Sequence record: MW679410.1 | Direction: 5' to 3' (one strand) | Source of the DNA: Escherichia phage C6 | DNA length: 64,000 nucleotides | Shown here: positions 2,251 to 49,973 of the stretch, piece by piece | How positions within the stretch are numbered: position 1 is the first letter of the stretch | How the letters are laid out: each line of letters opens with the position of its first letter | Program-made: the position numbers and the translations under genes | Notes under the pieces: generated by a model | The model's input: the letters and a program-made list of their open reading frames with translations, nothing else | The model's database searches: none | What the model was told of the DNA's origin: nothing

Positions 2251-2454
2251 TCAATTCAGGTTACGTTTAAAAAGGTCTGCCACTTCAAGGAGCTCGTCCT
2301 TAGTAGCGATGTCGTTGAGTATTTTATATCTGATTTCTTTAAAGCGTTCTTTAAAATCCTCAGCCGCATTGATATCAAAAAATCGTTGGATTAACCGGAA
2401 TTCTTTATGGACGGCTTTATCGAACAAATCAATATTCACTTTAAAGTTTGTCAT
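2251..2454 (-). CDS. rIIA.1-like small protein
   Basis: 67-aa ORF immediately upstream of rIIA, same strand; synteny with T4 rIIA.1. Confidence 0.6.
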   Translation of the reverse strand: MTNFKVNIDLFDKAVHKEFRLIQRFFDINAAEDFKERFKEIRYKILNDIATKDELLEVADLFKRNLN

Positions 2455-2791
2455 TTTTAACTACCTCATGTTGAACATATTCTCTGGTAGAACCTAGTTC
2501 AGCCAGAATTCTTCTCATAGAACCCATTGTACTTTTGTGCTCTCTGTGGCGATACATTATCTCTAAAACCTTTTCCTGGACAACAGGAGAGAGCGCCTGG
2601 TTATCTTTAATCTTTAAGGCAATAGATTTTACAGCCTTAAGGTATTCAAGTCCCTTACCGCTTGTAGTCACTACTCCTTCATCTTTACAGTTACGAATAG
2701 CCGTTTCCATAAAGGATAAAGCCAGGTTGTCAGTATTCACTATACTGTTATCTTGCATAATCATATTCTCACCTCTAGATAATCCTATCAC
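2441..2791 (-). CDS. hypothetical protein, 116 aa, possible helix-turn-helix
   Basis: ORF between rIIA.1 and the topoisomerase gene; no equivalent at this position in T4 as I recall; C-terminal segment STMGSMRRILAELGSTREYV is HTH-like. Confidence 0.5.
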   Translation of the reverse strand: MIGLSRGENMIMQDNSIVNTDNLALSFMETAIRNCKDEGVVTTSGKGLEYLKAVKSIALKIKDNQALSPVVQEKVLEIMYRHREHKSTMGSMRRILAELGSTREYVQHEVVKNDKL

Positions 2792-2817
2792 AGTTTTGTT
2801 ATGTTGTAAACCCCGAA

Positions 2818-2835
2818 AAGGGCCTTGCGGCCCTT
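2818..2835 (-). other. RNA stem-loop (GNRA loop)
   Basis: Minus-strand AAGGGCC-GCAA-GGCCCUU between the small ORF and the 116-aa ORF. Confidence 0.4.
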
Positions 2836-2837
2836 AA

Positions 2838-2990
2838 TTATTCAATTTTGTAGACTTGTCCTCGAACTTGATAAAATTCGCCTTCCCAGGTTTCTACCAT
2901 AATGGTCACGTACTCTGCGAACAAAGGTCTCTTCTCAGCCCAGAGATATCCAAATTCACCGGTGGCTAGCGTTATCCAGTACTTTCTCAT
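2838..2990 (-). CDS. small hypothetical protein (50 aa)
   Basis: Hand-translated ORF MRKYWITLATGEF...VYKIE with AGGAG 6 nt upstream of ATG; fills the gap between gene 39 and the 116-aa ORF. Confidence 0.35.
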   Translation of the reverse strand: MRKYWITLATGEFGYLWAEKRPLFAEYVTIMVETWEGEFYQVRGQVYKIE

Positions 2991-3033
2991 AAAGTCTCCT
3001 AATTGTATGGCACTCATGTACCATACATATTTA

Positions 3034-14676: not shown

Positions 14677-15198
14677 TTAATAACCTCGGTCTTGACGAGC
14701 AAAGTTCTCAGCATTTTTCAGGTAATACAACTTAAAGATTTCTTCAGCAGTCAGACCAAGACCTTGGAACATATTCAGAACAAAGTGCAGAATATCAATC
14801 ATCTCGAATTTAATTTCAAGCTGGTCTTCAGGAGAGAGTTCGTCAATACGACGGTTACGGAATTCACCGTGCTGAGCTTTCCAAGGCTTCCAGACGCTAG
14901 ATGCGGCTTTCTCACCATTACTCATGCCACCAAGAGAAGTCAACAGTTCACGGAATTCGTCATCAATATAATCTTTCTGGTTGCGAAGCCAATCGACAAC
15001 TTGACCTGCAGTAGCCAGTTCATCGGGGTTAGAGTTAAATTCAGATTTTTCAGTAGCCAAACGGACCTGTAATGATTTCTGCATATCAAGCATAACCTGC
15101 AGAGGGTCTTTATCTTCGTGAATCAAAGCATTAAAATAAGCTTCCTCAGCTTTATCAACACCAGCAATAAGTTGTGAGCATTCGTTAAAGTGTGCCAT
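14677..15198 (-). CDS. 56: dCTP pyrophosphatase gp56 (MazG-like)
   Basis: 173 aa; position and size match T4 gp56. Confidence 0.8.
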   Translation of the reverse strand: MAHFNECSQLIAGVDKAEEAYFNALIHEDKDPLQVMLDMQKSLQVRLATEKSEFNSNPDELATAGQVVDWLRNQKDYIDDEFRELLTSLGGMSNGEKAASSVWKPWKAQHGEFRNRRIDELSPEDQLEIKFEMIDILHFVLNMFQGLGLTAEEIFKLYYLKNAENFARQDRGY

Positions 15199-20333: not shown

Positions 20334-20647
20334 CTCTTAGATTTAATTTTATCCAGTTCTTCTTGTATTTGCATTGTAACACATTTTTCTACATGAAGCG
20401 CTAGCTCTTCTTTTCGGTCTTCGGAAGGTGTTCCGAAATCAACCGACACTTTTCCATCTTTCTCAATAACAATATTCATCACATAAACGATGTGAGCAGT
20501 GCCATCGGGTAAAGTAAGCATAATTTCCTGCTTAACAGAACCCATTGACTTACGGATTATATCTAATGATTTCTCATAATAACGAGGGTCACTAGGACCC
20601 TCTTCGGCATCTTTAACAAAATTATCTAAATCAGATAAATCAGTCAT
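20318..20647 (-). CDS. 40: gp40-position protein (109 aa)
   Basis: Between 41 and uvsX as in T4; identity by synteny only. Confidence 0.5.
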   Translation of the reverse strand: MTDLSDLDNFVKDAEEGPSDPRYYEKSLDIIRKSMGSVKQEIMLTLPDGTAHIVYVMNIVIEKDGKVSVDFGTPSEDRKEELALHVEKCVTMQIQEELDKIKSKRWWKW

Positions 20648-21821
20648 GGTCGCTCACAAAATTCATGTTTTCTAAATCGCTTTCGATGTCAGCAGCGCTT
20701 TGGGTATTTCCACCTAATTTAACAGCAACGTTCTTAGAGACACGAGAGTTAATAAGGTCGTTCACTGCATCGTCAACTTCTTTAATAGAATTAATTGCAC
20801 CAAGCTTATACTTATTCTCGATTGCTTCACGGAACGGAGCGTGTTTAAACAGCGGTCCCCAGAACTCAACACAATCGGTAGCTTTAGCACGCCATGCTTT
20901 TTCTTCTTGAACCATTTCACCCGTGGTTTCGTCAAGGAATGCACGATTATACCAACCAGCTTTAGGTTTCACTACAAAGCCGATATCAGTAGCCATTTCA
21001 AGCAATCCACTGAACGGGTCGATACCGCCTTCAAAGTTAACGGTGATAGGGAACGTTGACTTCTCTTTAACCGTACGAGATTTCTCAGCCTTCAGTGTGA
21101 AGTCATAACCGGTGAGCTCAGTACCATCTTTAACCTGGCGTTTAGAGATAAAGAATACGGTAGACGCAGAATAAAGAATACCAGTACCACCACCCATAAT
21201 CTCTTTAGGATACATTCCACCAATTTCCATAGCCGTGTGGTTAATTGCTACACAAGGGATATCTTTGATGGTCAGATAAGGTGTTACGATACGGAACAGA
21301 GATTTCAGTGACTTAGCACGAGTCATATCACCTACAACTTTCTCGTTCAAAGCATCTTCGGTTTCTTTCTTAGAAGCAGTGTTACCAATGGAGTCGATAA
21401 AGATAATAACCTTTTCGCCACGAGTAATTTCTTCTAACTGGTTAGTCATATCAACTTTAAGCTGTTCGACTGACTGGATTGGTGTATGAACCACACGTTC
21501 CAAATCAACACCCATCGAACGGAAATAAGATTCTGAAGCACCAAACTCAGAGTCATAGAACAAACAAATTGCGTCTGGATATTTCTTCATATATGCCGCA
21601 ACCATGGTAAGTCCAAACAACGTTTTAAAGTGTTTAGATGGAGCAGCAAAGATTGTCAAACCTGATTGTAAGCCTGCATTCAACGCACCACCTAATGCAA
21701 TATTCAGCATAGGGATACGAGTAGGAACTTCGTCACGACCATTAAACAATTTAGATTTGGTCAGGTCGGCAGTCATTTTAGAAGTAGAAGCTTTAATCAA
21801 ACGGGATTTTAAATCAGACAT
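20640..21821 (-). CDS. uvsX: UvsX recombinase (RecA/Rad51 family)
   Basis: 393 aa; RecA-fold ATPase; T4 UvsX length. Confidence 0.9.
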   Translation of the reverse strand: MSDLKSRLIKASTSKMTADLTKSKLFNGRDEVPTRIPMLNIALGGALNAGLQSGLTIFAAPSKHFKTLFGLTMVAAYMKKYPDAICLFYDSEFGASESYFRSMGVDLERVVHTPIQSVEQLKVDMTNQLEEITRGEKVIIFIDSIGNTASKKETEDALNEKVVGDMTRAKSLKSLFRIVTPYLTIKDIPCVAINHTAMEIGGMYPKEIMGGGTGILYSASTVFFISKRQVKDGTELTGYDFTLKAEKSRTVKEKSTFPITVNFEGGIDPFSGLLEMATDIGFVVKPKAGWYNRAFLDETTGEMVQEEKAWRAKATDCVEFWGPLFKHAPFREAIENKYKLGAINSIKEVDDAVNDLINSRVSKNVAVKLGGNTQSAADIESDLENMNFVSDHD

Positions 21822-21898: not shown

Positions 21899-22792
21899 TT
21901 AAAGGACCACGTCCTCATAACTTGGCATTTCGTGCTCAGAATGGATATGGGCACCGAAATAAATGAATTCAGCTAGACCAGGATGGAATACTAAATCAGG
22001 ATTCTCATGATAAATGATATGGGGTCTTGATTTCAGAATCTGATAATATTCAACCTTACTCGGTTTGAATTTAATAATCTCTACATCAGGGCGATAGTCT
22101 TCACGCTTAAATGAATCATTCGGATCGGTGATGTAAAGACGAGCACCTTCAGCCGCGGCTTGGTCTACAACTCTTTCGAATTGATAACATTTATCTGAGA
22201 TACGGAATGGATGGAAAATACCATCAATTTTAATAGGCGCTAGACCTTCAGAGTAACGCTCAATTACTGCCGGATTAATTACCTTTTGGTCTACAAAAAT
22301 CTTATCAGAGGATGCACCTCGTGACACCAGGACGTCTTTCTGGCATTGATTCAGGACTGTAGTATAAATCGAACGTTCAACTGAAGACACGTCGATATCA
22401 ATGAACTCATCAATATAATAACGAGGAACTTCAGGGTCCATTGTAATGTTAAAGTTGAATTGTACAGTCTGAGCACCATCATAACCTGTGATATCGGTTA
22501 CCAATCCTGAGCAGTCATAGTATTCGATTAACGAATCAACAACGAACTCATTTTCAGACCAAAAATGTTTACGAGTTTCATAAGCATTTTCTTTATACCA
22601 GAGTGGTACAAAATTCAGTTCAGGAAATAATTCAATGCATTCTTTGATATCGCTCGAATTTCTAGGATAAGCCAGATAATCACCTGGGCAAGCACGGTTT
22701 AAATGGAGTTGAAAATTGCCGTCCTTAAGGACGGCATATTCACCTGTTTCGTAACTACGCATACTGAAAATAGGAACGATAAACAAACTCAT
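21899..22792 (-). CDS. hypothetical protein (297 aa) occupying the T4 beta-glucosyltransferase locus; candidate DNA-modifying transferase
   Basis: ORF between uvsX and gene 42, where T4 has beta-gt; no similarity by eye to T4 beta-gt; function inferred from position only. Confidence 0.65.
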   Translation of the reverse strand: MSLFIVPIFSMRSYETGEYAVLKDGNFQLHLNRACPGDYLAYPRNSSDIKECIELFPELNFVPLWYKENAYETRKHFWSENEFVVDSLIEYYDCSGLVTDITGYDGAQTVQFNFNITMDPEVPRYYIDEFIDIDVSSVERSIYTTVLNQCQKDVLVSRGASSDKIFVDQKVINPAVIERYSEGLAPIKIDGIFHPFRISDKCYQFERVVDQAAAEGARLYITDPNDSFKREDYRPDVEIIKFKPSKVEYYQILKSRPHIIYHENPDLVFHPGLAEFIYFGAHIHSEHEMPSYEDVVL

Positions 22793-23487
22793 TTCAGGAA
22801 TCCTCGAACGTAGTCAAAATCACGTTCAAATACGTGTGCACTAACCATAGTATGGGAATACGTGCCCAGACCAACACCACACTGTTCAGCAATAAAGGCC
22901 ATCAGTTTACCCTGCAGATAGAAATCCAGCTGCATAACGATAGCACAGTTCTGTGAACGCATATGAGTGTGTGCATACAGACGTCCATCACGAATATAAT
23001 ATGTTACCGAATCGGTACATGGATATTCTAGGGATTCGTCAGAATCAAGGAGGGCTTGGTCTTGTTCTTGGAGAATTTGGAACACAACTCTTCGCGAGTT
23101 AGGCTTTTCTTTAAGCTCTTTAAGTAAGGCTGGGAGTTGGGCCACAATTCGAGGTCCATAGAAAGTGTTGAAGTTTGCAGGCAATACGTCACTTTTCGGC
23201 TTATCAATGAACTTAGCAACATTAGGATATTCCTTAAATGCTTCGGCGGCATCAGTACCACCAGAAATCATAAATTTCCAGAAAGATTCGGCATAATCAT
23301 AGTTGATACGATTAATGCGGGGATCGGTGAATTTGTAAGTGCTTGCATCCAGAACTTCAACTGAAGCCGAACCAATTTCATAACAACGACCGATACGAGA
23401 ATCAACTGCAAACTGTGGAGCTTCCAGGATTTCTTCGTTCATTTGCTTAAACGCGTTTTCAAAACTAACAGCGGTAATGTGTTTCAT
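22789..23487 (-). CDS. 42: dCMP hydroxymethylase-like enzyme (thymidylate synthase fold)
   Basis: 232 aa; TS-family motifs NSRRVVFQ, catalytic-Cys context YPCTDSV, MRSQN...QLD with Asp at the cytosine-specifying position; diverged from T4 gp42. Confidence 0.75.
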   Translation of the reverse strand: MKHITAVSFENAFKQMNEEILEAPQFAVDSRIGRCYEIGSASVEVLDASTYKFTDPRINRINYDYAESFWKFMISGGTDAAEAFKEYPNVAKFIDKPKSDVLPANFNTFYGPRIVAQLPALLKELKEKPNSRRVVFQILQEQDQALLDSDESLEYPCTDSVTYYIRDGRLYAHTHMRSQNCAIVMQLDFYLQGKLMAFIAEQCGVGLGTYSHTMVSAHVFERDFDYVRGFLK

Positions 23488-24020
23488 TTATTCACCTTAT
23501 TTTCAATATATTCATTCAGACGTTTTAATTCTACCATATCGACGTTAAGCAAGTTATTATGACCGTCATGGTTTAAAACTTTAAAAACATTTTTAAAACA
23601 GTCTTCATATTTCTGGATAGTTAGGTTGAACTCATCTTTGGTCAATTTAATAAGGTCATCTTCGAAGTCTTCATCCAATGGATTACGGGTTAAAATAACC
23701 TCAATAATATTGAATTCAGATTTAAACCCTTTCCAATCTTCCAATTCTACATAAGGGTCCATTTCACCGCGAAGGAATCCAGAGTAAACAATATTACTAG
23801 GATATCCACGGTCTAAGATGTAGACAAAATTAGGGTCTAAAAACTTATATAAGGTTTCGACTAAAGCCTTATCATTATCAGTCCCTATTGAAATGCACTT
23901 ACCATTAATCTTTTTAGGAAAATCAATAAGACGATATTTCTTATCAGACAAAAGTGATTCAATTAAAGTAGACTTCCCGGAATTATCCGGGCCGTCGATA
24001 ACAATGATTTTTGGTTTCAC
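23484..24020 (-). CDS. thymidylate-kinase-like dNMP kinase (P-loop)
   Basis: 178 aa; Walker A GPDNSGKST and DRGY motif resembling the TMK DRY motif. Confidence 0.65.
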   Translation of the reverse strand: MKPKIIVIDGPDNSGKSTLIESLLSDKKYRLIDFPKKINGKCISIGTDNDKALVETLYKFLDPNFVYILDRGYPSNIVYSGFLRGEMDPYVELEDWKGFKSEFNIIEVILTRNPLDEDFEDDLIKLTKDEFNLTIQKYEDCFKNVFKVLNHDGHNNLLNVDMVELKRLNEYIENKVNK

Positions 24021-24415
24021 GGATGATATGCCTTATAGGTTTCAAGAGTTCCTTCACGAACCATTTCTTTAAAGTGGTCAGGACGGATTGCTCGGTCATC
24101 GATGATAAAAGTATAACTCGGCTTATGTGTAAGCAGATTATGATATTTCAATCCAATCTTTTCAAGGTTCTTAACCAATGCAGGAACTACTTCAACCAAG
24201 ATTCGACCAGGTCCACATGAAGTCATGCCACGAGCAGTGAACAGCGTAATCTCATAACCTTCGTCATAAAGCTTATTAATCATGGACACCATTTCGGTGT
24301 CCGGTTTAAAGTTTTCGTAATCACGGTCATGGTTCCAAACCGTGATTGTATTATCGATGTCAAAACATAAATGGGGCTTATTTTCTACTCGATGCGACAT
24401 TAAATTTTCTTCCAT
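24017..24415 (-). CDS. small HAD-superfamily phosphatase
   Basis: 132 aa; motif I DIDNTIT (DxDxT). Confidence 0.65.
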   Translation of the reverse strand: MEENLMSHRVENKPHLCFDIDNTITVWNHDRDYENFKPDTEMVSMINKLYDEGYEITLFTARGMTSCGPGRILVEVVPALVKNLEKIGLKYHNLLTHKPSYTFIIDDRAIRPDHFKEMVREGTLETYKAYHP

Positions 24416-26073
24416 TGTTTGTGGAGTTCAGTAGAACCTGTAGGTTTATATTTTACACCAGTTTCTTGGTCAAGCAAAACCCACTTATCAGGACAACGAG
24501 TGATAATTTGGGCCGTGATAGGGTCACGAACTTCATCGACGAATTCACCTGTAATAAGCTTACGCTTGCGAGGATGCCGCTTCAGCAGCACACTCAGTTG
24601 ATATAAACCATTGTAATAAGCACCCAGAGCTTTCAGAGGGTTATTTTTAAAGTAACCTGCCAATGCCATCCAGATAACAGCAATCCAGAGCTTGTGCTTA
24701 AATGTACACATTGGAATATCATCTAAAGGCATAACCTTTTCAATATCAACGAATACACGAGTTCCGTTACGAGTTAAGCCACCCCATAGAGGGTCAGAGT
24801 TAAATTTGTCATACCCATCGATAGAATAAAGCACCTTAGCTTCATCATAAATCGCAGGGCCTTTAGAACTATTACCAAAATAACCACGTGGGTCGATGAT
24901 TTTAATATCACCTTCGTCCGACAACATAATATTACTGTAGTGCGGGTCACCGTGAATAAGTTGGTACGGTTCTTTATGTTCAGACAGAATTTCTAAGGCG
25001 TGGCGAAGAAGTTTTTCAGGGTCGCCTACCTTAAAGTCATTGACATGGGTAATACCCTGTGGAGCAAAGCCTTCAATCAATCCAGCAATAGAAGCATTAC
25101 GAATAAGGACCTTGTCCAATACTTCTTTCTTAACATCGGAATACCATTGCTCATCGGATGGATTATCGATAGTCCCACCGAATGAACGTAATGCACTAAT
25201 AACCTTATAAACCATGAGGACTTTAGTTTCTTTAGACATGAACCGATAGGCATCTGCCATAGTACGACCAAAGATACGTTCCATTTTAATGAATTCACCT
25301 GGAGCAAAGTCTACAATGCTCGGAACGAATTCAGAATCAATAGAATTATACCAATTGATTTCTTTAGATTGGATTTCTTTACCTAATTCGTTGGTAGGTA
25401 CTTTAATAGCCAGATTCTCAGTGAACTCTAATTTATTAAATTCACGGTTAATTTCGGATTCTTCATGGGCCTTAGCCAGTTTCAGTTTGTCACCGACATC
25501 AACTACAAAGTCTAGCTTACGTTCGGTCAAATGGACCATTGAATCCAGGTTGTCGGCAAGGTCTTCACCATAATTAGAGCGGTTGAAACCTGTCCAATTA
25601 GCCACCTGATACAAACCAACCACACCGCCACCGGTACCAATTTCACGCAGGTACGGTTCTTCAAATGTAAAACGACAGTCAGTCCCGTAGGTATAACAGT
25701 AGTCGTTATCCCACTCAACTTTATGACCCTCAGGAATGATGTCACACCAGTTAAACAGGACATTGTGCCCGATAATATCTTCAGCAATGCAATCAATAGC
25801 ATGAGCTGAACCATTGGCGACATCTACGTTACGAATAGTGAATTTAGGCTTATCACTATTAATCATGTTAATGGATTTAATGTAACCCTTAACGAGGTCA
25901 TTAAATTTGCTGTGAATAACCAGAATAATTTCATCTGATTGATTACTATACAAATCATACAAATGTTTTAATACAGTATGTTGTTTGTAGTTAACCAGTA
26001 CCTTCGGGATTTCGTTAGTAATTGGATACAACCGTGAGCCAAGACCCGCGCCTAAAATAACAACCTTTTTCAT
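24400..26073 (-). CDS. bifunctional sugar-1-phosphate nucleotidyltransferase (N-terminal) and APH/choline-kinase-like sugar kinase (C-terminal)
   Basis: Start moved to MKKVVILGAGLGSRLYPIT (GxGxR NTP-transferase motif; GAGGA SD); C-terminal HGDPHYSNIML...DIKIIDPRG is the catalytic loop of the APH/ChoK/MtnK kinase family. Confidence 0.8.
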   Translation of the reverse strand: MKKVVILGAGLGSRLYPITNEIPKVLVNYKQHTVLKHLYDLYSNQSDEIILVIHSKFNDLVKGYIKSINMINSDKPKFTIRNVDVANGSAHAIDCIAEDIIGHNVLFNWCDIIPEGHKVEWDNDYCYTYGTDCRFTFEEPYLREIGTGGGVVGLYQVANWTGFNRSNYGEDLADNLDSMVHLTERKLDFVVDVGDKLKLAKAHEESEINREFNKLEFTENLAIKVPTNELGKEIQSKEINWYNSIDSEFVPSIVDFAPGEFIKMERIFGRTMADAYRFMSKETKVLMVYKVISALRSFGGTIDNPSDEQWYSDVKKEVLDKVLIRNASIAGLIEGFAPQGITHVNDFKVGDPEKLLRHALEILSEHKEPYQLIHGDPHYSNIMLSDEGDIKIIDPRGYFGNSSKGPAIYDEAKVLYSIDGYDKFNSDPLWGGLTRNGTRVFVDIEKVMPLDDIPMCTFKHKLWIAVIWMALAGYFKNNPLKALGAYYNGLYQLSVLLKRHPRKRKLITGEFVDEVRDPITAQIITRCPDKWVLLDQETGVKYKPTGSTELHKQWKKI

Positions 26074-26133
26074 TATCTGTTCCTCAAGTGAATGTAGGTA
26101 CATTATACACTATTTTTAATAAATTGGTATTGC

Positions 26134-26634
26134 TTAAATCTTATCTTTACCGATTTCAATACACTGTTCTATTGCCGCCGGTACTTTGGTCTTGAGCTTA
26201 TTGATTTGTTTCTTATAATCACGGGCCTTATCAAAGCTTTCGGTTTCGAGCATTTCGTAATAACGAGCCTCATGGATGGAAATCTGTAGATTGATATGAT
26301 TTACGCACATCGCATACAGTTTCTGTTTTTTGTACAAATCGTCTTGACGCTTCATTTCTGCCTGGTGTTTGGCTAGTACCGCTTCACGCTTGGACTCTTG
26401 TTCACGTTGGAATTCAATTTCCCTTTGAGCATATTTTGCACAGTTATTACCGCATTGATTATTAGCTCGGGTATACACAAGTCCAGAACCTGCACGGAAT
26501 TTCATTTCGCCATCGAATTGTTTCTGTTCAGCTGCGATACGAGCTTTACCAACTTCATCAGCCGAAACTGCATCACCATATTGGACCGCGCAACCTGATA
26601 GGAGCATACTCATTGCGATAATTAACTTTTTCAT
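26134..26634 (-). CDS. putative lipoprotein (166 aa)
   Basis: Signal peptide with lipobox LLSGCA; coiled-coil-like remainder. Confidence 0.65.
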   Translation of the reverse strand: MKKLIIAMSMLLSGCAVQYGDAVSADEVGKARIAAEQKQFDGEMKFRAGSGLVYTRANNQCGNNCAKYAQREIEFQREQESKREAVLAKHQAEMKRQDDLYKKQKLYAMCVNHINLQISIHEARYYEMLETESFDKARDYKKQINKLKTKVPAAIEQCIEIGKDKI

Positions 26635-27074: not shown

Positions 27075-29786
27075 TTAAAAGTCGAACATGTCAAATAATG
27101 TTGCTTTTTTCTCGTAGTCGATTTTAGCGGACTCGGTAAAACCAGTCAGAGGCTTGATAAAGGTCTTTTGGAACAGTACGTTGTAGTCCATCCAACGGAG
27201 GACTTGGTCACGAATCTGAACCGGGAGTTCAATACCTGACGGCCATGCCATACAAGCTTCACCGAATGGGTTGCCTTCTTTAAGTGGCAGAACATACACC
27301 TTTTCACCATCAACGATACGAGGCATAGTCAAATCACCTGCAGAAGCACGCATGTAAGCTAAGCAACCTTTGATGTGGTATGGGCATTTAGAACCAGGGA
27401 ATCCGCCTTCATTATATTTCTCGATGTTGTTAGCACTGGATACTGCTGCAATGCTTACATAGTTTAGTTCGTTAAATTCCTTATTAAACTGTTTGAAATA
27501 TTCTTGCAAAGAAGCCTCGCCTTCCTGAAGCATACGACGGATACATTCCTTCAGAGCTTTCTGAACTGCTTTAGGTGTACTTGATTTCTGAGTTTCAAGG
27601 CCCATGATTTTCAAGTGTGGTTCGGCATAACGAGTACCTTCCATGTCCCAAACGTTCAGTGCATAACGTTTCTTGCCTGTCCAGAATCCGCCAAGACCTT
27701 TAGAACCAAGTGGAGGACCAGCAATAGCTTCTCGGTCCATGAACATCAAATGTTGTTTGTTGTTCATATACTCGCACATCTCACGGAAGCCTGCATCAAT
27801 AGCAGGTTCCATACGTTCGCGTGCAAATTTATCTAAGAAGTCGACCCAATGGTTAGTATCACGGAATTTATCTTCGCCTACTTTATTGATGATTGCATCT
27901 GCCTTAACATAAATGGAGTCAGTATCACCATAGAGCACGAACTTCTGATTTTCAGTCTTACACACGCTATTCAGATATTCGTTAACCTTACGTTCAATCC
28001 ATTGGAGGGCCATTTGACCAAACAGTGTGATTGCAGTTGCGTTCCTGAGGTCGTAGTAACGGAACCATACGTTACCAAGTGCACCATAAAGGGAGTTGAT
28101 AAGTAACTTACGGTTAATCTGAGCCGTGTTACCTGCAACTTCAGTGAGCTCGGCTTTCTTCAACATTTCTCTTAAAGAAGGTGCTGACAGTGTTTTAATC
28201 TTGGCTTTGATTTCGTCAGAGAAGTCAAAACGATAATCTATATCCAGTGGACTATCAACCGAGAGATTAGGATTTTCTAATGCTTCTTTAATTAACTCAC
28301 CATTACGTTGAGCTGCAAGCATGTAACCTTTATGTTCTTTACGTTGTAAGAACACCTTAGTGATTTCTGTCGGAATCACACCTTCACGGTCTTTATAGTA
28401 CATCATGCCGTTAGGAGAGCAACTGTAGGTATCGCTAGGACGCTGAGCAGTTCCGGCAATATATTCATGTATCGGTGCGTTAGCGAATGTCCCTGCGATG
28501 GTCTCTGGGCTTATATTCACTTGTCGAATGATACTCGGATACAGAGATGTAAGGTCGAAACTCATTACATATTTGTATGCGTTAGGAATAGGTTCCTTAA
28601 CGAAAGCGCCAGGATAAGGTTGGACCACGTGTGAACGAGCTTGTGGAATGACCTTGCCTTGTTCTTTAAGGCTATTAAAGATAATAGCGTCCCAAGTCTT
28701 AATTGGACTGAACACCGATTGAATCTGCATCTTAGCATAATAACCCATGTCCAAACTCAGAAGAATGAACTGGCGTTTCATATCAATCTGCACTACACGA
28801 TATACGTCGATAATGTTATAGGAAATATATCGTTGGTGGTTAGTCTCACGTAACTTGGAGATTGGACCATCATATTTCAACTTACCTACTTTCAATTCAT
28901 ATTCAGAAACATAATCCAGGGAATAAGAAGGCTGGTTGGTAAAGCTGAATTTTTTATACAGGTCAATATAATCTAGAACAGAGATACCGAACAAAGTAAT
29001 GATTTCACGAGCACCGTACATGTTCTCGATAACTTTAACACGAGTTTTACGATGTGGGCTTAATCGCTTAGCAGTGTTCTCACCGAACAGATTTTTCAGA
29101 CGGTTATAAACGTATGGTACGTCAAACGACTCAACGTTCCATCCAGTCAAAATCACAGGAGTTTTCTGTTGCCAGAAATTCAGATACTCAAGCATCATTT
29201 CTTCTTCAGAATTAAACGGAAGATAAACGATTTTGTCAATGATTTCTTGTGGAACTTCGTCACCACCTTCGTCTTGGAGTTTCTCAGCGATTTTAATCGA
29301 CCACTCTTCAACAGTACCATAAGGCGAAACTAAAAGGTCGAATACATAGAATTTATCGTCAATCGAGTCGTAGTGGGTAATAGCATCGATAGGGTGTTTA
29401 GCCTGAGCTGGTTCAGGGAATCCATCAGGAGATGTTACCTCGATGTCGAAGTTAGCAATACGAATCTTAGAAGAATCATATTTGATTTCTTTACGATAGG
29501 TATCGGACAAATAGGCTAATTTATAGTCGTCCATACCTAGGGCTTCGAGACCCATATCGTCCATACGTTTCATCCATTGGGATGCATCACGCATAGAATC
29601 GAATTCTTTCTTAACACAACCCTTACCATAGATATCAATGTATTTTACAGCTTGCTCTGGGTTAGCATGCATAAACATTGTAGGCTTGTAAGGAACTTCA
29701 CGACTACGTTCTTTGCCATTTTTATCGATGTAACGTTCGAGAATATTATCACCGATTTGTTCGACTGTCAAATAGAATTCTTGCAT
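27075..29786 (-). CDS. 43: DNA polymerase gp43 (family B)
   Basis: Start set at MQEFYLTVEQ (903 aa); exo and pol motifs (FDIEV, YGDTDS); near-identical in places to RB69 gp43 as I remember it. Confidence 0.95.
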   Translation of the reverse strand: MQEFYLTVEQIGDNILERYIDKNGKERSREVPYKPTMFMHANPEQAVKYIDIYGKGCVKKEFDSMRDASQWMKRMDDMGLEALGMDDYKLAYLSDTYRKEIKYDSSKIRIANFDIEVTSPDGFPEPAQAKHPIDAITHYDSIDDKFYVFDLLVSPYGTVEEWSIKIAEKLQDEGGDEVPQEIIDKIVYLPFNSEEEMMLEYLNFWQQKTPVILTGWNVESFDVPYVYNRLKNLFGENTAKRLSPHRKTRVKVIENMYGAREIITLFGISVLDYIDLYKKFSFTNQPSYSLDYVSEYELKVGKLKYDGPISKLRETNHQRYISYNIIDVYRVVQIDMKRQFILLSLDMGYYAKMQIQSVFSPIKTWDAIIFNSLKEQGKVIPQARSHVVQPYPGAFVKEPIPNAYKYVMSFDLTSLYPSIIRQVNISPETIAGTFANAPIHEYIAGTAQRPSDTYSCSPNGMMYYKDREGVIPTEITKVFLQRKEHKGYMLAAQRNGELIKEALENPNLSVDSPLDIDYRFDFSDEIKAKIKTLSAPSLREMLKKAELTEVAGNTAQINRKLLINSLYGALGNVWFRYYDLRNATAITLFGQMALQWIERKVNEYLNSVCKTENQKFVLYGDTDSIYVKADAIINKVGEDKFRDTNHWVDFLDKFARERMEPAIDAGFREMCEYMNNKQHLMFMDREAIAGPPLGSKGLGGFWTGKKRYALNVWDMEGTRYAEPHLKIMGLETQKSSTPKAVQKALKECIRRMLQEGEASLQEYFKQFNKEFNELNYVSIAAVSSANNIEKYNEGGFPGSKCPYHIKGCLAYMRASAGDLTMPRIVDGEKVYVLPLKEGNPFGEACMAWPSGIELPVQIRDQVLRWMDYNVLFQKTFIKPLTGFTESAKIDYEKKATLFDMFDF

Positions 29787-29845
29787 TTCATTTCCTTTAT
29801 AGACGAGTGATTGTCTTTTGTTTGTTGATGAATCATTATACTCCA

Positions 29846-29865
29846 AAAGGGACCGAAGTCCCTTT
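29846..29865 (-). other. RNA stem-loop with UUCG tetraloop between regA-distal ORF and gene 43
   Basis: Minus-strand AAAGGGAC-UUCG-GUCCCUUU; no strong U-run; terminator or stability/processing element. Confidence 0.4.
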
Positions 29866-35327: not shown

Positions 35328-35565
35328 CCTTGATGCATGATTCAGCCATATGAATTAATGTTTCTGGAGTATCATCTACCATTACATTAAAGCTAAATTC
35401 CACAGCCCAATCAGTAGCAACATAAACTTTAATAAGCTCGTTGGTATCGCGAGTGCTCACGGCTTCAAACCAGAACTTAATTGTATTAGGTTGTCCGTCG
35501 TCATCAATAACGATACAGTCGTGTTCTAGTTCAAGTCCTGATTTTTTGAATTCATCTAAAGTCAT
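35302..35565 (-). CDS. hypothetical protein (87 aa)
   Basis: ORF. Confidence 0.55.
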   Translation of the reverse strand: MTLDEFKKSGLELEHDCIVIDDDGQPNTIKFWFEAVSTRDTNELIKVYVATDWAVEFSFNVMVDDTPETLIHMAESCIKDAYNDENV

Positions 35566-36584
35566 CGTGTAACCTCATTATAAAGTTGTGCAGCCATAGT
35601 CTTAAGGGCTTTAACATCGTCTTCAGTGTGGCCATCAGGAAGGGCATCGATATAATCATACATCATATCCAAGAGGGACTTAACTTCATCTTCCTCTTCA
35701 GAATCATCGATATCAACACTGTTATCTACCTTAGACACGATACGTAAAGAATGGACCACCTTTTCAAGCTCTGATTCGAACTTAGTAAGACCGTCATCAA
35801 TTTTATCGACTATAACACGAACTGCGATATTTGTAAAATCTTTGTAATCGATAGTCGCGTTAGGATAATGAATCTTACGGTGCCAACAGGTTTCATTAAT
35901 GATGAAATCCATCTTATGAGTTTCTGTGTCGAAAATCCAGAATCCGCGAGGGTCGTTCTCGTCACCAGCAGTCAGGGTCCATGGCGTACCAATATACTTA
36001 ACGTTTGCTGCATCAGAAATAGTATGGAAGTGTCCAGACCATACCTGCTTATACTTCTTAAGGAAATCAGGTTCTAAACCATGAGATTTCATTCCTTTAT
36101 AGAAATAGAAACCATTTAATTCCCAGTGACCTATACAGAAATCTGCTGTGGTATTTTTGATATGCTCCATGATATCGGTAGTGTTTTCTTCACACATCCA
36201 TGGAATCAAATCAATTTCGGTGCCATCAAAATTAACCGTAGTAGGTTTCTCAATAACCTTGATATGGTCATATTTACCCAGAACTTCTGAAGCTGCGTTC
36301 GGAGTTAGGGTATTTTTGTAGTGCATATCATGGTTGCCAACGATAGTATACATGGTAATGCCGTTGGCTTTAAGCAAATCGGAGATTTCGCGAGCGAATT
36401 CCATGCACTTGTGGGTAATTGCTTTACGAACGTCAAAGATATCACCGTACTGAATCCAGACAGTAATGCCATTTGCTTTAGAATAATTAATAGCGTCTTG
36501 GATACCTTGACGTTGGATATTTTGTACCCATACATCATCGGCCTTAACTCCAAGGTGCCAGTCACCTGTGTTTAATATTTTCAT
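35562..36584 (-). CDS. 47: recombination nuclease subunit gp47 (Mre11/SbcD-like)
   Basis: Start set at MKILNTGDWHLG (phosphoesterase motif I); metallophosphatase motifs; about 340 aa. Confidence 0.9.
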   Translation of the reverse strand: MKILNTGDWHLGVKADDVWVQNIQRQGIQDAINYSKANGITVWIQYGDIFDVRKAITHKCMEFAREISDLLKANGITMYTIVGNHDMHYKNTLTPNAASEVLGKYDHIKVIEKPTTVNFDGTEIDLIPWMCEENTTDIMEHIKNTTADFCIGHWELNGFYFYKGMKSHGLEPDFLKKYKQVWSGHFHTISDAANVKYIGTPWTLTAGDENDPRGFWIFDTETHKMDFIINETCWHRKIHYPNATIDYKDFTNIAVRVIVDKIDDGLTKFESELEKVVHSLRIVSKVDNSVDIDDSEEEDEVKSLLDMMYDYIDALPDGHTEDDVKALKTMAAQLYNEVTR

Positions 36585-36724
36585 AAGCCAAGCGCCGTTA
36601 TCGCAGTGCAAAATAAAATTATTGAAATGAACCCGTCAGGAGTGGAAAAGAATCCTATCCAACAAGCTCGTGTGAATGTATAGAATGCCATGAATAGCAC
36701 GACATATCCTAAAAATAATTCCAT
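36581..36724 (-). CDS. small membrane protein (47 aa)
   Basis: Hand-translated MELFLGYVVLFMAFYTF...; GAGGAG SD; stop overlaps gene 47 start. Confidence 0.45.
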   Translation of the reverse strand: MELFLGYVVLFMAFYTFTRACWIGFFSTPDGFISIILFCTAITALGL

Positions 36725-36773
36725 ATGTTCTCCTCAGTTTAGACTATTGTACTCCGATATACCTAAAGCAAAA

Positions 36774-36793
36774 AAGGAGCCTAAGCTCCTTTA
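36774..36793 (-). terminator. stem-loop terminator
   Basis: Minus-strand AAAGGAGC-loop-GCUCCUUU followed by U-rich tract. Confidence 0.55.
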
Positions 36794-36954
36794 CCAACTA
36801 ATACACCGTACAGAGGTTCGTGATTAGACCTGAACTTGATAGGCTTATATGTAATAGTACCTTCATTTTCTGCTTTAATACGAGCGGCTTCAAATTTAAG
36901 CAACATCTCATTTTTGTCAGATTTAATCTTATCAAAATCCATCGAATTCGTCAT
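36781..36954 (-). CDS. small hypothetical protein (57 aa)
   Basis: Hand-translated MTNSMDFDKIKSDKNEMLLKFEAAR... Confidence 0.35.
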   Translation of the reverse strand: MTNSMDFDKIKSDKNEMLLKFEAARIKAENEGTITYKPIKFRSNHEPLYGVLVGKGA

Positions 36955-37043
36955 TCATACAACCTCTTAAACTTTTTCATATTCGTCATTCATAAGCTTA
37001 AAAATCAGGGTGTTCGTCTTTCATTAGCCACCTGTCCATGTTA

Positions 37044-37244
37044 TCATCGTTGCCACCATTTCTTAAGTTGGTGTGAATCCACCCAAACCTTGGCTACAGG
37101 CTCAATCTGAAAAATACCATCAGAATATTGACCCATCATTTTGTATTCGGTTTCGGACTGCTTAATACAGATATTACCGTATGAGCGAAGTCTAAAGGCG
37201 GCTCCAATAAGAAGCCGTTTAAAGGGTTTATTTACTAGAGCCAT
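37044..37244 (-). CDS. hypothetical protein (66 aa)
   Basis: ORF. Confidence 0.45.
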   Translation of the reverse strand: MALVNKPFKRLLIGAAFRLRSYGNICIKQSETEYKMMGQYSDGIFQIEPVAKVWVDSHQLKKWWQR

Positions 37245-37539
37245 TGACGATTTCCCAAATTTGTTTGCGGGTAGATTCCCACATCAATTGAACAAGTTCA
37301 TCAGTAACAGGTTGACGGTAAATACCACGTAATTTAATTAAAGCGTACTTATATGCTTCAAAGTTGTTTTCAAGTACAGCGCCTTGGGCATGGAGATTTA
37401 AACGACGGATTTCACGAGCATTCTTCTTAAGAATCTTAGCCGCTTGAGAATTAGCTTCTTTAATATTGTGCTCTTCTAAACGTTGCTGGGCTTCTTCAAT
37501 TTGCTCATCAGTCAATTGAGAAATGTCATGGCTTTGCAT
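37228..37539 (-). CDS. hypothetical protein (103 aa)
   Basis: ORF. Confidence 0.55.
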   Translation of the reverse strand: MQSHDISQLTDEQIEEAQQRLEEHNIKEANSQAAKILKKNAREIRRLNLHAQGAVLENNFEAYKYALIKLRGIYRQPVTDELVQLMWESTRKQIWEIVNGSSK

Positions 37540-37540
37540 A

Positions 37541-37771
37541 TTAATCCTTTGGAGTCAATTCAATAGTGAAGTAGAAATTAGCGTTCTCAACATGATAACG
37601 ATAATCTACGTTATTGTCAGGAGAAGTGAATTCAATATTCCTGACGTTAAGTGGGTCAATATCAATAGGAAGGCCTTTAACATCCCGTAATATCAATTTA
37701 ATAAAATAAGGGAGTGCTTCGAAGTCTTCCATTCCATCTAAAAGTGGAGTGATATTAATCTGATGTTCCAT
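37541..37771 (-). CDS. hypothetical protein (about 76 aa)
   Basis: ORF; start ambiguous, trimmed to limit overlap with gene 55. Confidence 0.45.
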
Positions 37772-38312
37772 ATAAAAAATCCAGTTCGCCAACTTTAGGT
37801 TCGGCACTCTTATCAGACCCTGGTGCTTTAGTTAAAGAGGTTTCATACTGAGTCATTTTGTCGTAGATATCTTGGATAAAGGTTTCATCTGCAATACCTA
37901 CCATGTCGTCATCATTACTGTCATAGACGTTATGGACGAAGTAGCTATATTTCTTTGCCATTTCTTTACGTTCTTTTTTGATACGCTGAACGAAGGCATT
38001 AAAACAAGCCATAGTGATATATGCATGTGGGTTGTCGTATTTTGTTTCGTCGAAGTTGTGAAGACCTTTAATCGAAGCTTCGATTCCGTCAGCAATCATT
38101 TCTTGCTTCCAAGATTGGGTATATCCTGAGAAGTTGAAACGTTTACTTAGTCCTTCAGCAATGAGCATAATAGCCAAGCCAATAACGTCGTTCTGGCGAA
38201 CTATTTTATTAGGATCGGTATTTTCTCTGAGCTCTGTTTTCCATTGGGTAATAGCTTTCAGAAGCTCCTTATTATTTACATAGTTATTTTTAGTCAGTTT
38301 AATTTCGGTCAT
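37755..38312 (-). CDS. 55: late-transcription sigma factor gp55
   Basis: 185 aa; NYVNNKELL...[36 protein letters not shown] matches T4 gp55. Confidence 0.9.
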
Positions 38313-49187: not shown

Positions 49188-49195
49188 TATAAATA
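49188..49195 (+). promoter_or_regulatory. T4-type late promoter TATAAATA
   Basis: Exact TATAAATA on the plus strand 22 nt upstream of the ATG at 49218, followed by AAGGAG SD. Confidence 0.6.
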
Positions 49196-49217: not shown

Positions 49218-49973
49218 ATGATTATATCAGCAAAAACCATCGATGAATTGAACGAGAAGGTCCAGTTAGCATTAGACGATAACTGGCATCTTTTTGGTTC
49301 AACGGTAGTCCTTCCTAATACTGTAACTGATAACAGCGAACGATTCTTTCAAACGATGTCAAAATCAGTTACCCAGATTCCAGGACCTCCTGGACAAAAA
49401 GGTGATAAAGGTGACCCCGGAAATCCTGGCGACCCGGGAGTTCAAGGTGAACCAGGAAAGTCTTCATACCAATTATGGATTGATGAAGGTAATAGTGGAA
49501 CAGTAGATGATTTTTTGACTGCAATAGCAGGAAAGAGAAGAAAATCAGAAGTGTTTTGGAGTGGTATAAACGTTCTATTAACTAATGGTGCGACTTCAAA
49601 CATAATTAGTATTTTAAAGGGGATTCCGCCGACAGCAGGGACTCTATCTCCGTTTTTTAGAACTGCTGATGATAAGATGTGGCCATATAACCAAGACAGA
49701 AGCCTAATGTTTAAACTCAACCTTATTGGTAATTTTACAGGAGTCTCGCAAGCTCGAAGTATAACATTAAATTTCGTTGGAACCAACGGAAACACCTATA
49801 CACAGAACCGTCCAGAAAATGCTACAGATATTTTGTCTTTTACGACGTTCTTTAGCATTGATAAAGATGGGGCAATGGCAACCAATGGTACAGCTATAAC
49901 TGTTACGCCAAATGGCGGCAACTTTACAATAACCTCTGCATTGTTAGTAGCTGAACAAACAGTGACTTCATAA
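49218..49973 (+). CDS. collagen-repeat protein (251 aa), probable late/virion-associated
   Basis: Plus-strand ORF; nine Gly-X-Y triplets (GPPGQKGDKGDPGNPGDPGVQGEPGKS); Asn/Thr/Gly-rich beta-type C-terminal domain; own late promoter and terminator. Confidence 0.75.
   Translation: MIISAKTIDELNEKVQLALDDNWHLFGSTVVLPNTVTDNSERFFQTMSKSVTQIPGPPGQKGDKGDPGNPGDPGVQGEPGKSSYQLWIDEGNSGTVDDFLTAIAGKRRKSEVFWSGINVLLTNGATSNIISILKGIPPTAGTLSPFFRTADDKMWPYNQDRSLMFKLNLIGNFTGVSQARSITLNFVGTNGNTYTQNRPENATDILSFTTFFSIDKDGAMATNGTAITVTPNGGNFTITSALLVAEQTVTS

Follow-up and report, generated by a model that had tools for sequence, protein, structure and literature searches.

Between gene 47 and gene 55 of the window, i.e. 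the whole stretch of 64,000 nucleotides of phage DNA analyzed here, lie five small genes (Table 1). They were identified by tblastn of T4 proteins (41-78% amino acid identity), they are annotated likewise in phage JS10, and their order matches that of T4, RB69 and JS10. The Pfam matches of a-gt.2, a-gt.4 and a-gt.5 score 70.5, 81.9 and 53.6 bits, all above the respective gathering cut-offs of 27, 25 and 27, and all five ORFs fall into PHROG families (phrog_6693, phrog_2140, phrog_1648, phrog_951 and phrog_1169) with E-values of about 1e-30. Judged by this homology and conserved order, they are real conserved genes and not chance ORFs. The original prediction had stated that alpha-gt lies between genes 47 and 55 in T4 and that the same interval holds just five small ORFs of 47-103 aa here. 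The former agrees with the T4 block, which holds a-gt between 47.1 and a-gt.2, and the latter is borne out by the ORF listing, the JS10 annotation and tblastn.

Table 1. Position and assignment of the genes and features discussed in the text
Feature	Position	Strand	Evidence
Gene 56-type dCTPase/dUTPase, predicted to supply dCMP and exclude dCTP	14677-15198	-	phrog_173, 2.3e-45; colinear with IME341 gp251
Predicted GT-B glycosyltransferase, RB69 gp46:47 orthologue, predicted first DNA arabinosyltransferase (AraT1)	21899-22792	-	64-69% identity to RB69p046/p047
Thymidylate-synthase-family protein at the gene 42 position, predicted 5-hydroxy-dCMP synthase	22789-23487	-	79% identity to RB69 gp48
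P-loop nucleotide kinase	23484-24020	-	37% identity to RB69p045; phrog_761 'thymidylate kinase', 6.7e-40
HAD-like sugar phosphatase, counterpart of RB69 gp51 and HY126 AfhF	24017-24415	-	63% identity to RB69p051
Bifunctional sugar-1-P nucleotidyltransferase (N-terminal) and kinase (C-terminal), counterpart of RB69 gp52:53 and HY126 AfhE	24400-26103	-	Pfam
166-aa ORF within the cluster	26134-26634	-	phrog_1754 (unknown function)
Gene 47, SbcD/Mre11-like recombination nuclease subunit, lower boundary of the interval	35562-36584	-	71% amino acid identity to T4 gp47 over 339 aa; Pfam Metallophos; phrog_100
47.1 orthologue, 47 aa, predicted small membrane protein	36581-36724	-	78% identity to T4 47.1; phrog_6693, 1e-30
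Predicted regulatory cassette in the 56-bp spacer (position of T4 mobB and a-gt)	36746-36792	-	Terminator-like match; sequence reading
a-gt.2 orthologue, 57 aa, DUF5486	36781-36954	-	57% identity to T4, 56% to RB69; PF17588, 1.1e-19
a-gt.3 orthologue, 66 aa	37044-37244	-	45% identity to T4 a-gt.3; phrog_1648, 2.9e-29
a-gt.4 orthologue, 103 aa, DUF2654	37228-37539	-	41% identity to T4 a-gt.4; PF10849, 4e-23
a-gt.5 orthologue, 76 aa from ATG, DUF5491	37541-37771	-	41% identity to T4 a-gt.5; PF17595, 2.8e-14
Gene 55, late sigma factor, upper boundary of the interval	37755-38312	-	79% identity to T4 gp55; phrog_234, 8.9e-69

The start of gene 47 is the ATG at 36584, which matches T4 (by alignment to T4 gp47) and JS10 (by annotation). 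A longer ORF of 349 aa from a TTG at 36611 was rejected as over-extended, the T4 gp47 alignment beginning at the ATG at 36584. At the other end, the alignment of a-gt.5 to its T4 counterpart begins at 37771 and the gene overlaps the 3' end of gene 55. In JS10, 47.1 is annotated as 'gp47.1 hypothetical predicted membrane protein'.

In T4, 47.1 and a-gt.2 flank a-gt (400 aa) and mobB, which encodes an HNH homing endonuclease, whereas 47.1 and a-gt.2 of the window are separated by a spacer of 56 bp, too short to accommodate a gene or the remains of a pseudogene. Such an a-gt remnant within the interval was considered and rejected, given the length of the spacer and the lack of any tblastn match. 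T4 mobB, segA and imm.1 likewise have no counterpart in the window by tblastn. The interval can thus be read as the usual T4-type set of small early/middle genes, 47.1 and a-gt.2 to a-gt.5, with no insertion, and T4 a-gt and mobB as a lineage-specific module that is absent from this JS98-group Dhakavirus. The 'a-gt.N' gene names are misleading, as these genes are conserved with or without a-gt and whichever sugar is used.

The spacer appears to carry a regulatory cassette. A terminator-like hairpin (36792-36773), whose loop contains the stop codon of a-gt.2, is followed on its 3' side by a MotA-box-like sequence, TTTGCTTTA (36772-36764), a 12-nt spacer and the -10 element TACAAT (36751-36746), downstream of which are found a Shine-Dalgarno sequence and then the start of 47.1. 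This arrangement fits the consensus of T4 MotA-dependent middle promoters, and on that consensus the cassette is a putative middle promoter. The T4 late-promoter motif TATAAATA was not found in the 47-55 interval. The same terminator-promoter cassette is present in JS10 and RB69, while in T4 it occurs twice, between a-gt.2 and mobB and again between a-gt and 47.1. Copies of the cassette therefore flank the mobB and a-gt module of T4, an arrangement consistent with the gain or loss of this module at a regulatory-cassette boundary.

By sequence comparison, the window is from a T4-type coliphage of the JS98 type, genus Dhakavirus (Straboviridae, Tevenvirinae). Its closest relatives are the Dhakaviruses IME341 and IME08, with 96-97% nucleotide identity by megablast over the interval region and a 24-kb stretch around it, and JS10 and JS98 share 92% nucleotide identity with the window (megablast). 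The whole genome measures about 170 kb, and IME341, a 93-97% identical relative, was used as a stand-in for the genome outside the 64-kb window. A virtual whole genome was thus composed of the window and IME341 positions 1-114000, with an overlap of 93% identity at both window ends.

Searches for glucosyltransferases returned only noise. The best tblastn match of T4 alpha-gt (GT72) in the window has an E-value of 0.028 over 36 aa and that of T4 beta-gt an E-value of 3.2, and the best match of T2 beta-alpha-gt (E=0.071 over 73 aa) lies inside an unrelated gene. At a threshold of E<=0.05, none of the three enzymes was detected by tblastn in IME341 1-114000, which spans the genome beyond the window, and the virtual whole genome likewise gave nothing above noise. 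In the IME341 annotation, all ORFs of at least 250 aa outside the window region have known T4 functions, and a Pfam survey of IME341 gp154 and of the large window ORFs lacking an assignment revealed no hidden glycosyltransferase family. Among 50,697 phage records, about 504 contain alpha-gt homologues of at least 80% identity, in named Escherichia, Shigella and similar phages. These track the T4-type gene 42 (506 records by megablast), and the homologues of the thymidylate synthase (ThyA)-like protein of the window form a separate set of 371 records. No Dhakavirus name was found among the sampled alpha-gt rows or among 60 sampled rows of the gene 42 search. The absence of glucosyltransferases is in fact already known for JS98-type phages, since RB69 and JS98 have been reported to contain homologues of genes 42 and 56 without glucosyltransferase genes, alpha-gt being reported in T-even types only, and the question of other modifications in such phages was raised in the same study (Petrov et al., 2010; PMC2993671).

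Some 13 kb from the 47-55 interval, six genes of the window lie between uvsX (20640-21821) and gene 43 (27075-29846), where T4 has segA, b-gt, 42, imm and imm.1. Collectively, they point to an arabinosylation cluster. The protein encoded at the gene 42 position (232 aa) is just 25-26% identical to T4 gp42. In an alignment numbered by E. coli ThyA, the protein carries Asn169, Asp177 and Glu143 (D169N, N177D and L143E), and T4 gp42 keeps Asp169. RB69 gp48 and nine further D169N homologues have been shown to produce 5-hydroxy-dCMP using O2 and flavin, and D169N has been proposed as a diagnostic signature of 5-hydroxycytosine (5hoC) synthases (Lee et al., 2026; PMC13326640). The window enzyme thus has D169N along with the N177D and L143D/E exchanges of a 5-hydroxy-dCMP synthase and lacks the Asp169 of a T4-type dCMP hydroxymethylase. 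By sequence, it also matches PDB entries 9iqu, 9iqc and 9ir2 (E=1.5e-125), versus 4.7e-6 for the T4 dCMP hydroxymethylase (1b49). These entries appear to belong to the deposition series of phage HY126, going by the neighbouring entry code 9iqz, which is named as HY126. The enzyme is hence predicted to be a 5-hydroxy-dCMP synthase and not a dCMP hydroxymethylase, and the modified base of this phage is probably not hydroxymethylcytosine (hmC), 5hoC being predicted instead.

The gene adjoining the synthase, at the beta-gt locus, encodes a protein of 297 aa and is syntenic with RB69 arabosyltransferase 1. Pfam gave no family for it and phmmer no PDB sequence match, and BLASTP did not relate it to alpha-gt, beta-gt, ba-gt or RB69 gp3. 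A database search retrieved 117 clusters of homologues, all labelled 'hypothetical', including proteins of phages Acj61, Acj9, Ac42 and Serratia 92A1. A single-sequence AlphaFold run was unusable (pLDDT 31.6), and a 67-sequence alignment as input gave a model with pLDDT 95.3 and pTM 0.90. Its glycosyltransferase identity was revealed by fold comparison only and not by sequence searches. On this predicted fold, the protein is a glycosyltransferase of the GT-B type. RB69p046 and RB69p047 have been shown to derive from a single gene that a sequencing error had split, and this gene was named arabosyltransferase 1 (Lee et al., PMC13326640). No activity was seen with single glycosyltransferases in that study, and in vitro reconstitution of the first arabosyltransferase is so far lacking for all phages.

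These results bear on the remainder of the original prediction. That the beta-gt locus holds a non-beta-gt protein is upheld, this protein being an orthologue of RB69 gp46:47 without BLASTP similarity to beta-gt. The check put forward at the time, tblastn of both T4 enzymes against the whole genome, gave no match in the window and the IME341 1-114000 stand-in, and the claim that the T4 glucosylation machinery is unrecognisable in the window extends to beta-alpha-gt in addition to alpha-gt and beta-gt. The proposal of 'a different hmC modification' holds in so far as the modification appears to differ from that of T4, but it is outdated as regards the base, because 5hoC is predicted from the 79% identity to RB69 gp48 and the D169N exchange.

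Two further genes of the cluster encode homologues of sugar-activating enzymes. The 567-aa AfhE-like protein contains Pfam NTP_transferase (residues 13-110) and APH (356-427) domains and is 41-44% identical to RB69p052/p053, and the HAD-like phosphatase matches PDB entries 9iqw (E=3.9e-55) and 1xpj (2.7e-12). Hence, the window combines an AfhE-type and AfhF-type enzyme pair with a syntenic GT-B arabosyltransferase 1. Outside the cluster, the dCTPase family phrog_173 corresponds to nucleoside triphosphate pyrophosphohydrolases, and dNMP kinase, alc and denB are annotated in IME341 outside the window. The 166-aa ORF has no significant Pfam or PDB match. It was considered as a divergent arabinose-5-phosphate (A5P) isomerase and rejected, as it has no SIS domain, no match to RB69p055 and no PDB match.

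Several RB69 functions were not detected in the window and IME341. By tblastn, there is no homologue of the A5P isomerase RB69p055/DLP3 gp83 or of the second arabosyltransferase RB69 gp3 (RB69p003), and the U32-like p050 has no homologue in the same sequences. In the window, the spacer between rIIA and gene 39, i.e. the site of gp3 in RB69, contains only ORFs of 67, 116 and 59 aa. No counterpart was thus found of the second or third arabosyltransferases (RB69 gp3; DLP3 gp76/77) associated with di- and tri-arabinosides. Because E. coli itself encodes A5P isomerases (KdsD and GutQ), a phage enzyme can be dispensable. The phage A5P isomerase is probably an accessory and not a defining feature of the pathway, and KdsD or GutQ of the host could substitute for it.

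The interpretation we favour, with a probability of about 0.85, is that this phage does not glucosylate hmC and carries a cytosine arabinosylation pathway of the RB69/HY126 type, whose predicted product is mono-arabinosyl-5-hydroxycytosine formed from host-supplied A5P. The basis for it here is gene content, orthology, an active-site signature and a predicted fold, and the enzyme activities come from published work on RB69, HY126 and DLP3. By analogy, the enzymes would operate likewise in this phage, with a mono-arabinosyl outcome. The gp56 dCTPase would break dCTP down to dCMP, which the flavin-dependent thymidylate-synthase homologue would convert to 5-hydroxy-dCMP. The phage dNMP kinase and host kinases would then provide 5-hydroxy-dCTP for incorporation by the phage polymerase in place of C. 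In parallel, the AfhE-like and AfhF-like enzymes would convert arabinose-5-phosphate into Ara-1,5-P2, Ara-1-P and finally UDP-arabinofuranose, from which the GT-B transferase at the former beta-gt position would add arabinose to the 5-hydroxyl (O5). Since one transferase and no A5P isomerase were found, the predicted product is mono-arabinosyl-5-hydroxycytosine, with A5P derived from the host. With no second transferase detected in the window and IME341, a single arabinose per modified base is the probable outcome. Similarly, phage Thanatos is mono-arabinosylated and encodes just one syntenic ara-GT (PMC13326640).

Two other readings would keep the T4 base. One is that the phage makes hmC like T4 and leaves it unglycosylated, anti-restriction proteins taking the place of the sugar. 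A thymidylate-synthase homologue at the gene 42 position, a gene 56 dCTPase and the lack of alpha-gt and beta-gt would all fit such a phage, and this was one of two possibilities raised by Petrov et al. (2010; PMC2993671). However, the window enzyme has Asn where T4 gp42 has Asp at ThyA position 169, it is 79% identical to the demonstrated RB69 5hoC synthase and 26% to gp42, and a GT-B transferase and a pair of NDP-sugar-forming enzymes adjoin it, which makes unglycosylated hmC very improbable. The other is that glucosylation is kept by an alpha-gt or beta-gt gene located outside the window. The window covers just 64 kb out of about 170 kb, and modification genes can lie apart, as does the second transferase of RB69 from its main cluster. 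[quoted passage not shown] Glucosyl transfer moreover needs hmC, which is not predicted from the ThyA homologue of the window, so that this reading is scarcely credible and the least probable of those considered.

It is rather unlikely, but less so than either of these, that the base is 5hoC with a sugar or chain unlike that of RB69, i.e. another pentose or a hexose, or a di-arabinoside built by an unrecognised second transferase. Because the A5P isomerase p055, p050 and gp3 of RB69 are missing, the sugar or the chain length could differ from RB69. The AfhE-like protein is just 41-44% identical to its RB69 counterpart, the cluster includes the 166-aa ORF of unknown function, and Rhizobium phage RL38J1 attaches hexoses to 5hoC (PMC13326640). 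Against this stand the AfhF-like phosphatase, 63% identical to RB69 gp51 and matching 9iqw at 3.9e-55, the AraT1 orthologue at 64-69% identity, and the Pfam survey, in which no further glycosyltransferase-like ORF was found among the large unassigned ORFs. A phage-encoded A5P isomerase, for its part, can be dispensable given KdsD and GutQ of the host.

Within the favoured arabinosylation pathway, a narrower proposal is that Dhakaviruses carry a minimal set for 5hoC arabosylation, consisting of the synthase, one GT-B transferase, AfhE, AfhF, the nucleotide kinase and the 166-aa protein, with no isomerase, U32-like protein or second transferase. We advance it tentatively, at odds just short of even. 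If true, Dhakaviruses would be strictly mono-arabinosylated and reliant on host KdsD/GutQ for the sugar precursor, a reliance which could be exploited or selected against, and they would show which genes of the RB69 cluster are dispensable.

The replacement chemistry is already known from work on RB69, HY126 and DLP3 published between 2018 and 2026, in which Dhakaviruses are listed as predicted carriers. Arabinose was reported in RB69 DNA, and an IME08 homologue of the bifunctional enzyme noted, by Thomas et al. (2018; PMC6024577). More recently, the RB69 modification was revised to arabosyl-5hoC, with 5-hydroxycytosine as the base, and Dhakaviruses were included among the genera with a syntenic cluster and predicted to be carriers (Lee et al., NAR 2026; PMC13326640). 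In 2026, work on the Durham phage collection also confirmed the presence of 5-ara-dC and 5-ara-ara-dC in one Mosigvirus. No chemical analysis of any Dhakavirus DNA was found in the searchable literature. Given the reports of Petrov (2010), Thomas (2018) and Lee (2026), the observation made at the 47-55 interval is therefore a correct re-observation, already explained, and its discovery value is small. Its practical use lies in the annotation of these phages. In public records, the key pathway genes go under the names "thymidylate synthase", "RNA polymerase binding protein", "phosphoheptose isomerase" and "thymidylate kinase", and these labels mask a DNA-hypermodification pathway with consequences for restriction, CRISPR sensitivity, sequencing and the choice of phages for therapy.

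Compared with other Dhakaviruses, the window is typical. JS98, JS10, IME08 and IME341 have an identical gene order across the interval, at 92-98% nucleotide identity, and their ThyA homologues are 98-100% identical to that of the window. The differences are minor: JS10 departs from the window in the -10 region of the putative spacer promoter, and IME08 and QL01 have about 420-450 bp of extra DNA in the compared stretch (match span of 3318-3348 bp versus a 2901-bp query), where the QL01 RefSeq annotation lists an HNH endonuclease.

RB69, a Mosigvirus whose cluster comprises gp45-gp55 and gp3 and whose DNA has been shown experimentally to be arabinosylated (PMC6024577; PMC13326640), has the interval 47, a-gt.2 to a-gt.5, 55 without a-gt, as does the window, which in addition keeps 47.1. 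Between uvsX and gene 43, the two phages have in common orthologues of the synthase (79%), AraT1 (64-69%), the HAD phosphatase (63%), the kinase/nucleotidyltransferase (41-44%) and the nucleotide kinase (37%). RB69 differs by gp3, p055, p050 (U32-like) and p049, which have no homologue in the window, whereas in the window the kinase gene lies on the opposite side of the synthase and the unrelated 166-aa ORF is present. In the Afh pathway of HY126 (He et al., cited in PMC13326640), AfhE has a bifunctional architecture like that of the 567-aa protein. Structures that appear to be from HY126 are matched by both the ThyA homologue (9iqu, 1.5e-125) and the HAD phosphatase (9iqw, 3.9e-55). The contrast is with the T-even phages, T4 using gp42, alpha-gt and beta-gt and T2/T6 beta-alpha-gt, while the window has no homologues of alpha-gt, beta-gt, beta-alpha-gt, mobB or segA. 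The T4 gp42 and the ThyA homologue of the window are 26% identical and differ by Asp versus Asn at position 169. Finally, while in T4 the sugar donor is host UDP-glucose, in the phage described here the donor must come from phage enzymes.

In the window, a hairpin followed by a candidate middle promoter, made up of a MotA-box-like element and a -10 element, occupies precisely the site at which T4 carries mobB and a-gt, the homing endonuclease and alpha-glucosyltransferase genes. The same cassette is found in RB69 and JS10, while in T4 it is present twice, flanking the mobB and a-gt module on both sides. Since the two T4 copies bracket this module, its arrangement suggests that mobB and a-gt may have been gained or lost at such a terminator/middle-promoter cassette. 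Mechanical ORF calls proved too long for gene 47 (TTG 36611 versus the homology-supported ATG 36584) and for a-gt.5 (GTG 37807 versus ATG 37771).

Coordinates of the features discussed (window unless a comparison locus is named)
Feature	Location	Strand	Context
Hairpin, MotA-box-like TTTGCTTTA, -10 element	36746-36792	-	
Same cassette, T4	L011 14570-14640; 16660-16760		
Same cassette, RB69	L003 19980-20075		
Same cassette, JS10	L001 4215-4295		
Gene 47, mechanical call	35562-36611	-	
a-gt.5, mechanical call	37541-37807	-	
251-aa ORF	49218-49973	+	between nrdC.10 and nrdC.11 homologues
T4 late-promoter motif TATAAATA	49188-49195	+	~23 nt upstream of 251-aa ORF start
166-aa ORF (phrog_1754)	26134-26634	-	between AfhE-like gene and imm, inside arabosylation cluster
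rIIA-gene 39 spacer	2251-3017	-	rIIA.1 (67 aa), 116-aa DUF7367 protein, 59-aa ORF
IME341 modification genes	NC_055742.1 150354-152831 (L008)		

The 251-aa ORF lies on the strand opposite to every early-region neighbour. Its product combines an Sf6-type tail needle knob domain (Pfam, 7.1e-33; phrog_1030, 4.2e-65) with a collagen-like repeat; the ORF is absent from IME341, and its sole full-length match is in phage MN04, with partial matches in other relatives.

In RefSeq, the product names given to the modification genes of IME341 mislead: "RNA polymerase binding protein" is used for the GT-B transferase, "thymidylate synthase" for the 5hoC synthase, "phosphoheptose isomerase" for the HAD phosphatase and "thymidylate kinase" for the kinase. 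The 166-aa ORF, for which Pfam and PDB searches returned no match, could be a cluster-specific accessory protein. RB69 has no counterpart of this ORF and, in the rIIA-gene 39 spacer, carries the second arabosyltransferase gp3, whereas the window has three small ORFs instead.
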